Below are positions 52,026 through 52,429 of a stretch of DNA of 64,000 bases, piece after piece. Position 1 is the stretch's first letter; each line of letters begins with the position of its first letter. Origin of the DNA: Parachlamydiales bacterium. GTDB lineage: Bacteria > Chlamydiota > Chlamydiia > Chlamydiales > JAFEGQ01. The translations under genes and the position numbers were made by a program. The notes under the pieces were generated by a model that saw only the letters and a list, made by a program, of their open reading frames with translations, was not told where the DNA came from and made no database searches. Where the stretch lies: contig JBFWPF010000006.1 in assembly GCA_050250135.1 (NCBI GenBank), positions 8,971 to 72,970 on the forward strand. Reading direction: 5' to 3'.

Positions 52026-52271
52026 ATGACTGCACAAAACGTTGTCCGCTTCCGAACGATCTCCCGCAAAAAAGGGGAGATGACCGCTAACTTCCGGGTC
52101 AAGGGGGGGCGAAACGGGGCTGAGTTTACCGCCTCAATCTCCGTTGACATCGACGCGGCTAATGTCGACCCCGCTGACTCCTTGGAGAAGATTATCCAGG
52201 AGTGTGCCCAAATCGGCCTGCGCGAATTCAAGCGGTGCGAATTTGAGTTTGAGGGGTTGACAAGCATCTGA
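52026..52271 (+). CDS. Small hypothetical protein (81 aa)
   Basis: The ORF runs from the ATG at 52026 (MTAQNVVRFRTISRKKGEM...). The final A of its TGA stop is the first base of 159-bp element copy C. No family was recognised. Confidence 0.4.
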   Translation: MTAQNVVRFRTISRKKGEMTANFRVKGGRNGAEFTASISVDIDAANVDPADSLEKIIQECAQIGLREFKRCEFEFEGLTSI

Positions 52272-52429
52272 CCCCTGATTGCCACCTATCGTCCTGAGGG
52301 GGCGGCAGAGGGTAGTCAGATGAGGCAAATCGCGACGAGGCCGGGTTTGTAAACCCGGGTGAGGAAGGATGTCCGTTAGATGACTGCCCACTGTCGATGC
52401 CCTCAGGACGATAGGTGGCAATCAGGGGT
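52271..52429 (+). repeat. 159-bp long-hairpin (MITE-like) element, copy C
   Basis: Arms are ACCCCTGATTGCCACCTATCGTCCTGAGGG ... CCCTCAGGACGATAGGTGGCAATCAGGGGT (30/30 complementary). The central hairpin is CCGGGTTT-GT-AAACCCGG. It ends 5 nt before tRNA-Pro. Confidence 0.9.

Follow-up and report, generated by a model that had tools for sequence, protein, structure and literature searches.

The bcr1 repeat of the Bacillus cereus group is a dispersed element of about 155 bp with 5-bp direct repeats, which is transcribed and in which compensatory changes keep the RNA fold, and the Correia/NEMIS repeats of Neisseria and the ERIC repeats of Enterobacteriaceae are intergenic miniature inverted-repeat transposable elements (MITEs) of 100-160 bp that can form long RNA hairpins when co-transcribed (PMC3184786). 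REPINs, which are paired REP (repetitive extragenic palindromic) sequences moved by RAYT transposases, are non-autonomous and form a long hairpin with conserved ends and a variable middle (PMC3116915, PMC3337134). Here we describe a 157-bp element found in a stretch of 64,000 nucleotides from a Parachlamydiales bacterium (assembly GCA_050250135.1, contig JBFWPF010000006.1, positions 8,971 to 72,970), hereafter the window, which holds three full copies named A, B and C. Our analysis identified the locus as a MITE copy, a non-autonomous mobile element belonging to Parachlamydiales-like bacteria. Over its full length the element forms an imperfect palindrome, whose rod-like pairing is kept by compensatory changes and by G.U, not A.C, appositions on the strand of copies B and C, which is called the forward strand throughout.

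Copy C, previously delimited as 52271-52429, has arms at 52270-52300 and 52400-52430 that are 100% complementary, and together with the other full copies and the arm remnants of the window it is laid out as follows (window positions).
52272..52428, forward strand: copy C, element proper, 157 nt with ends CCCCTGATTG...CAATCAGGGG, folding as a single rod-like hairpin
52272..52300, forward strand: left arm of copy C (terminal inverted repeat)
52400..52428, forward strand: right arm of copy C (terminal inverted repeat)
52267..52271, forward strand: left 5-bp target-site duplication of copy C, TCTGA, which includes the TGA stop of the open reading frame (ORF) 52026-52271
52429..52433, forward strand: right target-site duplication of copy C, TCTTA, 1 base from tRNA-Pro
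52332..52368, forward strand: apical module of copy C, consisting of GCGACGAGG, the hairpin CCGGGTTT-GTA-AACCCGG and GTGAGGAAGG
41804..41960, forward strand: copy B, element proper, in the same orientation as copy C (whole copy 41803-41961)
41799-41803 and 41961-41965: flanks of copy B, TGATA (with the TGA stop of ORF 40134-41801) and TATTA
13584..13740, minus strand: copy A, element proper (whole copy 13583-13741), with its forward orientation on the minus strand
9986..10015, forward strand: lone right arm, directly 3' of tRNA-Lys
9862..9885, forward strand: arm fragment (GGACGATAGGTCACAA) between tRNA-Glu and tRNA-Lys
The element of the main subfamily measures 157 bp, from CCCC to GGGG, and has terminal inverted repeats of about 29 nt (CCCCTGATTGnnACCTATCGTC...), with arms of 29-31 nt that are 84-100% complementary; the arm pattern has seven matches in the window against 0.02 expected by chance. 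The element is non-coding, its sole internal ATG-led ORF not being conserved between copies B and C. A small peptide, suggested by a GAGGA followed by ATG, was rejected on the same ground, since the ORF has 4 codons in copy C but 21 codons in copy B.

That the element moves is seen most directly at sites where relatives lack it. Copy C lies between two neighbours on the same strand.
52026..52271, forward strand: conserved hypothetical ORF of 81 amino acids, upstream neighbour, with its stop codon in the left target duplication
52435..52509, forward strand: tRNA-Pro (GGG), downstream neighbour
In the closest available relative, GCA_021772495.1 (L012), in which the neighbouring genes encode proteins of 71-75% identity, the site is empty and the stop of the 81-aa ORF is followed by 6 nt and tRNA-Pro; in a more distant syntenic contig (L014) it is likewise empty, with 9 nt between stop and tRNA-Pro. 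The orthologues of the ORF (L012, 223-468; L014, 9478-9696) all end at the same codon, and at this point the window has 157 extra bases compared with these relatives. For copy B, the orthologue of the upstream gene in the contig L015 is followed by 48 nt of unrelated spacer that holds no element, with synteny broken downstream. The clearest insertion into a gene was found on contig Ga0180438_10000696 (L007:821-979), where the element interrupts an otherwise complete cytidine deaminase gene and brings in three in-frame stop codons. Removal of 162 nt (157+5) restores the full ORF of 136 amino acids with both zinc-binding motifs, and a comparison of the spacing with homologues shows exactly 162 nt added in 11 of 11. 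No uninterrupted allele of this gene was found in the protein database, in which the best match is 68% identical, and the gene represents either a recent knockout or one whose transcript loses or bypasses the rod.

A model of 5-bp target duplication was applied to the flanks of ten copies, and all five positions agreed in three copies, four in three and three in four. The left and right flanks that agree best are these (the handles of the copies outside the window are listed with their coordinates further below).
L005a: TTTAA / TTTAA, 5 of 5
L006b: CTAAG / CTAAG, 5 of 5
L006s: CTTAG / CTTAG, 5 of 5
Copy C: TCTGA / TCTTA, 4 of 5
L007: TTTTA / TATTA, 4 of 5
L009a: TTTAA / TTCAA, 4 of 5
The central base of the flanks is direct, not inverted, in six of the ten copies, and the insertion targets are palindromic pentanucleotides (TNWNA or CTWAG). 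The 5-bp model also satisfies the 157+5=162 nt of the cytidine deaminase gene and keeps the TGA stop of the 81-aa ORF in the left duplicate. Other models fared worse: a TA duplication of the Tc1/IS630 kind fits only two of seven copies, and a TWA duplication of 3 bp would require element boundaries that shift and clashes with the stop codon at copy C. In all copies the bases next to the arms on the outside are complementary, which was first considered as covariation; this was set aside because the palindromic 5-bp target duplication explains it. Among the features by which a MITE is recognised, a short non-coding sequence (under about 300 bp), terminal inverted repeats, dispersed copies, target-site duplication and presence or absence at orthologous sites are found here. 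The outer arms are nearly identical across hosts of 60% and 42% GC, a conservation which we infer to reflect recognition by a transposase at the DNA level. The ORFs neighbouring the copies gave no Pfam or NCBIfam transposase match.

Among the described systems, bcr1 is the best-documented parallel, sharing a similar size, a dispersed and non-conserved distribution, 5-bp direct repeats and compensatory changes. It differs in folding as a double stem-loop (cruciform-like), whereas a single rod is found here, in its unrelated sequence and in belonging to another phylum; furthermore, bcr1 is transcribed, whereas the present element is known from DNA. The Correia and ERIC elements, whose hairpins are processed by RNases, are functional analogues alike in size, terminal inverted repeats and an intergenic location near genes, but they duplicate TA instead of 5 bp, their repeat sequence is unrelated, and the chlamydial element has no AT-rich centre of the kind bound by integration host factor (IHF). 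Rickettsia palindromic elements, likewise functional analogues, are palindromes 100-150 bp long that occur in obligate intracellular bacteria, in intergenic regions and also inside genes; they are inserted in frame and translated, in contrast to the copy in the cytidine deaminase gene with its three in-frame stops. REP sequences and REPINs are also different, since REPs are self-palindromic over 20-40 nt, carry a GTAG/CGTC tag and make no target duplication, whereas each arm here pairs with the opposite arm, carries no tag, and the target is duplicated over 5 bp. Integron attC sites have the core sites RYYYAAC...GTTRRRY and form an array beside an integrase; the ends CCCCTGATTG and CAATCAGGGG do not match these core sites, and the copies are dispersed and form no array. 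A scan of Rfam brought only tRNAs to gathering score and nothing meaningful at E <= 10 in 52200-52520. The element is in kind a bacterial MITE with conservation of the fold at the level of a single strand, which stands outside REP/REPIN, attC, the Rickettsia palindromic elements and every Rfam family.

As to its parentage, the IS1380 family of insertion sequences (e.g., ISEcp1) has ends that likewise begin with 5'-CC, and about 7 of the 10 outermost nucleotides of the ISEcp1 repeats (CCTAGATTCT, CCTAAATTCC) agree with CCCCTGATTG and CCCTAATTGC, a short and weak similarity. ISEcp1 duplicates a target of 5 bp. The examined loci showed no IS1380-like transposase between such arms, and the family may be regarded as a lead to the parent, not as one to which the element is assigned. 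Chlamydiota are usually regarded as poor in mobile DNA, and the searchable literature yielded no description of a chlamydial MITE family or of these sequences.

The conclusions on the fold rest on a wider set of about 15 copies in about seven diverged subfamilies, collected from the window and from metagenome contigs. A scan of metagenomes for the arm pattern gave seven loci, within which a covariance model built from six forward-oriented copies then found more. At least nine further copies in five metagenome contigs stand beside the three full copies of the window; related copies occur on contigs Ga0180437 and Ga0180438 (42% GC) and partial copies on Ga0308160 and Ga0308169. The copies outside the window are given below with the contig handles used in this work.
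L005:2585-2745, plus strand: L005a, the same locus as L006:10790-10950
L007:820-980, plus strand: L007, within the cytidine deaminase gene
L009:207-369, plus strand: L009a
L008:77-239, minus strand: L008b
L006:1809-1969, minus strand: L006b
L005:9732-9893, plus strand: L005c
L006:4288-4384, minus strand: L006s, short, with an internal deletion
L008:340-436, minus strand: L008s, short, with an internal deletion
L009:2634-2761, plus strand: L009p, divergent
L009:2798-2916, minus strand: L009q, divergent
L014:12817-12971, minus strand: L014x, divergent, on the syntenic chlamydial contig
The arm sequences of the subfamilies differ (ACCCCTGATTG..., AGACCCTAATTGC..., GAACCTAAGTTGCG...), each change being mirrored on the opposite arm, and common to all of them is a central module made of GAYGAAG, a GC-rich hairpin of variable, covarying sequence, and NGAGGA. 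L009p and L009q lie tail to tail between convergent genes, with arms unrelated to those of the main family and the apical motif kept. The overlapping pieces L005 and L006 (Ga0180438_10004316 and Ga0180437_10003478) cover about 22 kb with five copies or fragments, a density far above that of the window, and the copies sit there among genes for large, internally repetitive proteins. Searches elsewhere were negative: the scan of reference genomes for the arm pattern gave two matches, both of them single arms within coding sequence and attributed to chance, and nothing relevant was found in viral contigs, plasmids and phages.

Two rods of a second type, called F2, were also found in the window.
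6574..6729, forward strand: F2a, second-type rod, directly upstream of tRNA-Gly
9995..10167, forward strand: F2b, second-type rod, directly downstream of tRNA-Lys, with folding energies of -84.0 (forward) and -61.6 (reverse) kcal/mol
They are 83% identical, F2b having a 17-nt insertion relative to F2a. F2 is no more than a probable relative of the element family: it has in common with the main element the rod fold, a 5' flank resembling an arm and the apical motif, here GCGACGAAGCC-hairpin-GGTGAGRAGCG, but neither the covariance model R2 nor a hidden Markov model of the apical domain detected the F2 rods. The 11-mer GCGACGAAGCC may also be part of the Correia consensus, which is a lead only.

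Read on the strand of copies B and C, the element forms a single rod-like hairpin with some 70 pairs. RNAalifold on six copies returned 51 pairs, one of which is a flank column and is to be discounted, with 18 compensated. With eight distinct copies, double changes are seen in 30 of the 51 pairs and the paired cells amount to 95.3%, against 40-47% pairing in controls in which the sequences were slid; the covariation score was 0.578 against 0.275 in shuffles, none of 500 reaching the observed value, figures to be read with the sequences being related and the alignment fitted to the model. A test of covariation on more copies, of the kind proposed when only the three window copies were available, has come out in favour of the fold, the eight copies exceeding all 500 shuffles and all slid controls. 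The two best-sampled subfamilies have six private double changes, all of them transition plus transition, for which a G.U pair is a possible intermediate. Covariation runs through the interior of the rod, whose bulges and apical motif have stayed asymmetric.

The preliminary description, made from copies A, B and C, had reported a paired swap at arm position 13, with G-C in copy B and C-G in copy C, and a position-by-position table gave the same result. The table also reproduced the wobbles read in the orientation of copies B and C, namely U.G at position 24 in B and, in A, U.G at position 12 and G.U at position 13, as well as their count of three against one of the reverse type, the latter being position 25 in A, a C.A that is G.U only on the other strand. 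Of three true mismatches attributed to copy A, those at positions 18 and 20 were recovered; the third is evidently the same C.A at position 25, already counted. Its caution that three copies are weak evidence was well placed, as 3 against 1 is not significant alone and the difference became significant after the interiors and the copies of other contigs were added.

When both strands were folded, the forward strand was the more stable in every full-length copy, as the earlier idea of an RNA hairpin would predict. Energies for copies A, B and C range from -101 to -118 kcal/mol on the forward strand and from -79 to -98 kcal/mol on the reverse, and the forward minus reverse difference is -10 to -23 kcal/mol in every full-length copy, a result that spans about seven deeply divergent subfamilies and gives p of about 0.016 in a sign test with seven lineages. 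This difference shrinks to -2 to -9 kcal/mol with G.U pairs forbidden. In a strand-neutral count, structures were derived with G.U disallowed and the bases facing each other in symmetric internal loops were classified, which gave 30 of G.U type and 5 of A.C type (binomial p = 2e-5), or about 25 against 5 after shared events were collapsed; equal numbers on the two strands, which had been named beforehand as the outcome that would speak against an RNA structure, were thus not observed. Fixed non-Watson-Crick pairs comprise six G.U and no A.C, and recent changes on a single side led seven times to G.U and twice to A.C. The model structure has 95.2% of cells paired on the forward strand and 88.0% on the mirrored reverse, and in all copies the covariance model gives the forward strand a lead of about 70-90 bits over the reverse (for copy C, cmsearch gave 164 bits forward and 89 bits reverse). 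The data show selection on one single strand.

These counts bear on the possibility that the element is a MITE at the DNA level only, its arms being transposase sites homogenised by conversion (hairpin or cruciform repair) and its excess of wobbles due to chance or mutation bias. The near invariance of the outer arms between hosts of very different GC content is what a protein-binding site would show, the original count of 3 against 1 was not significant, and the copies are phylogenetically related, all of which agree with such an explanation. It does not account for the 30 against 5 of the strand-neutral count nor for the same sign in about seven diverged subfamilies, and it leaves unexplained the interior covariation, where no transposase site is expected, and the bulges and apical motif, which stay asymmetric. 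Mismatch repair recognises G.T best and should remove G.T, not enrich it; arm-to-arm conversion is an unlikely cause, because this repair would remove G.T first and would not preserve the asymmetric apical module and bulges. A sense-strand (transcription-linked) mutation bias was ruled out as the cause of the G.U excess, the G+T fraction at sense-strand fourfold-degenerate sites of 42 window genes being 0.46, with no excess. We regard a purely DNA-level explanation as very improbable. The preliminary description had presented the pattern as not expected for terminal inverted repeats acting purely in DNA; the two properties are both true of the element and are not alternatives, as it is also a genuine DNA-level mobile element.

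A second possibility is that the polarity stems from a single-stranded DNA intermediate of transposition, only copies with a well-folding forward strand being mobilised or recognised, with no function for the host. REPIN/RAYT, IS200/IS605 and integron attC sites offer parallels. Of the mismatches in DNA, G.T destabilises least, so that a G.U excess fits this explanation equally; the antisense copies L005a and L006b retain the asymmetry, and much of the G.U signal is common within subfamilies, that is, inherited from source copies. On the other hand, a 5-bp direct duplication and long inverted repeats are hallmarks of double-strand transposition by DDE enzymes, whereas HUH transposases make no duplication. 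The arms are not self-palindromic in the manner of REPs and lack the GTAG/CGTC tag, no R'/R'' core sites of attC are present, and private changes that arose after insertion still favour G.U by 7 to 2. Such an intermediate is in our opinion an unlikely source of the polarity.

Our findings suggest instead, with somewhat better than even confidence, that the constraint on one strand is selection on a transcribed RNA fold which acts besides the constraint on the transposon ends. In the earlier statement that the pattern is that of an RNA hairpin, the double changes and the wobbles confined to one strand hold on the wider set of copies, while the step from that strand to RNA is a likely one. We hypothesize that the 157-bp element is moved by a transposase supplied in trans, presumably that of a parent element which would carry CCCCTGATTG..ACCTATCGTC arms and a 5-bp duplication, IS1380-like DDE enzymes being the first candidates. 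Two layers of constraint may then be distinguished. The outer arms would be held in sequence by transposase recognition in hosts of 42-60% GC, and the pairing of the rod would be held by selection on the single-stranded form, most likely RNA read through from neighbouring genes and tRNA operons. In untranslated regions, the long duplex could serve as a processing or stability element, e.g., as a substrate of an RNase III-type enzyme or a barrier to 3' exonucleases, and the apical loop may be a protein-binding site. Several orientations agree with transcription of this strand: all five rods of the window point the way their surroundings are transcribed, L009p and L009q are each sense to their own upstream gene, and the L007 copy is sense to the cytidine deaminase gene.

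Several observations weigh against this interpretation and are considered together. In L005a and L006b the forward strand runs antisense to the ORFs on either side, and the unambiguous contexts split only six sense to two antisense. No promoter or intrinsic terminator of their own was found in the elements, so that transcription would depend on read-through. The asymmetry is modest when the arms alone are considered (8 G.U against 3 A.C cells), and the short copy L008s is without it. The copies are related by descent, and independent events number nearer 30 than the total of cells. Neither a cognate transposase nor a complete insertion sequence bearing these ends turned up at the examined loci or in collections of viruses, plasmids and phages. 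Finally, judged from sequence, RNA and a single-stranded DNA hairpin would fit alike, G.T being tolerated in DNA too.

A further alternative sees in the rods domesticated genes for structured non-coding RNA or cis-regulatory RNA modules, with the apical loop as a binding site and mobility ancestral or incidental. In accordance with it, the apical motif is kept where the arms are unrelated (L009p, L009q, F2, L014x), rods are positioned directly after stop codons, and three of the five window rods abut tRNA genes. The last association is absent at other loci, and a general association of the rods with tRNA genes was for this reason rejected. Rfam gives no match even at E <= 10, the rods lack their own promoter or terminator, relatives have empty orthologous sites and one copy disrupts a gene, all of which make domestication quite improbable. 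Similarly doubtful is the idea that the rods go beyond selfish DNA and are chlamydial mobile RNA cassettes, in which the apical loop GAYGAAG-hairpin-NGAGGA recruits a host factor and each insertion installs a signal for processing or stability. In its extreme form the rod could be cut out of the mRNA or bypassed in it, which would explain the intact L007 cytidine deaminase.

In this element, two constraints are superimposed on one sequence, the conservation of transposon ends across hosts of 42-60% GC and the conservation of a rod on one strand. If that strand is RNA, each insertion would place a hairpin of about -100 kcal/mol in a 3' untranslated region, a 5' leader or a tRNA precursor, and the family would offer a ready system for learning how intracellular bacteria tolerate or exploit stable structures. 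The repeats also have practical consequences, as they break short-read assemblies of chlamydial metagenome-assembled genomes and can truncate or disrupt gene calls, as seen with the stop codons of two window genes and with the L007 cytidine deaminase.

The gene order of the window is Chlamydiota-like, with a PBP2 of 1057 amino acids, tRNA-Gly, rpsB-tsf-pyrH-frr, tRNA-Glu, tRNA-Lys, mcsA and mcsB. One window protein has 100% identity to a protein from an NCBI metagenome-assembled genome labelled Parachlamydiales bacterium, and the DNA runs SRR27751815 and SRR27751816 contain this organism. At about 60% its GC content is unusually high for Chlamydiota, and the host is an isolated lineage, because the nearest available relatives of two window proteins share just 71-75% identity. 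Copy B begins at the stop codon of a gene for a transporter of the major facilitator superfamily (MFS), with a convergent gene on its other side. Copy A occupies most of the divergent intergenic region between ORFs 13001-13537 (minus strand) and 13779-14549 (plus strand). A sigma-70-like promoter match (TGGACA, 17 nt, TATTGT) at 13742-13770 abuts this copy and ends 9 nt before the start of ORF 13779-14549, and the -35 region may either have come with the insertion or have been displaced by it.

Right-arm sequence of the element (CCCCC..GGACGATAGGTCACAA) follows both tRNA-Glu and tRNA-Lys (window 9835-9890 and 9983-10015), which suggests that these trailers are old, partly deleted copies or belong to a duplicated unit of tRNA plus trailer. 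Outside the window, L010:622-660 and L011:1-40 (Ga0308160 and Ga0308169) hold only the right arm and CTGTCGATGCCC of the window-type element, no left arm being present within 220 nt; these contigs have 52% GC, and their ORFs are of low complexity and rich in Ala, Ser and Pro. The window also contains direct repeats at 62879-63282 with spacings of 51 nt and 72 nt (six copies of a 158-nt register, 60-85% identical), which lie inside the minus-strand ORF 62666-63559 and probably encode a tandem-repeat protein.

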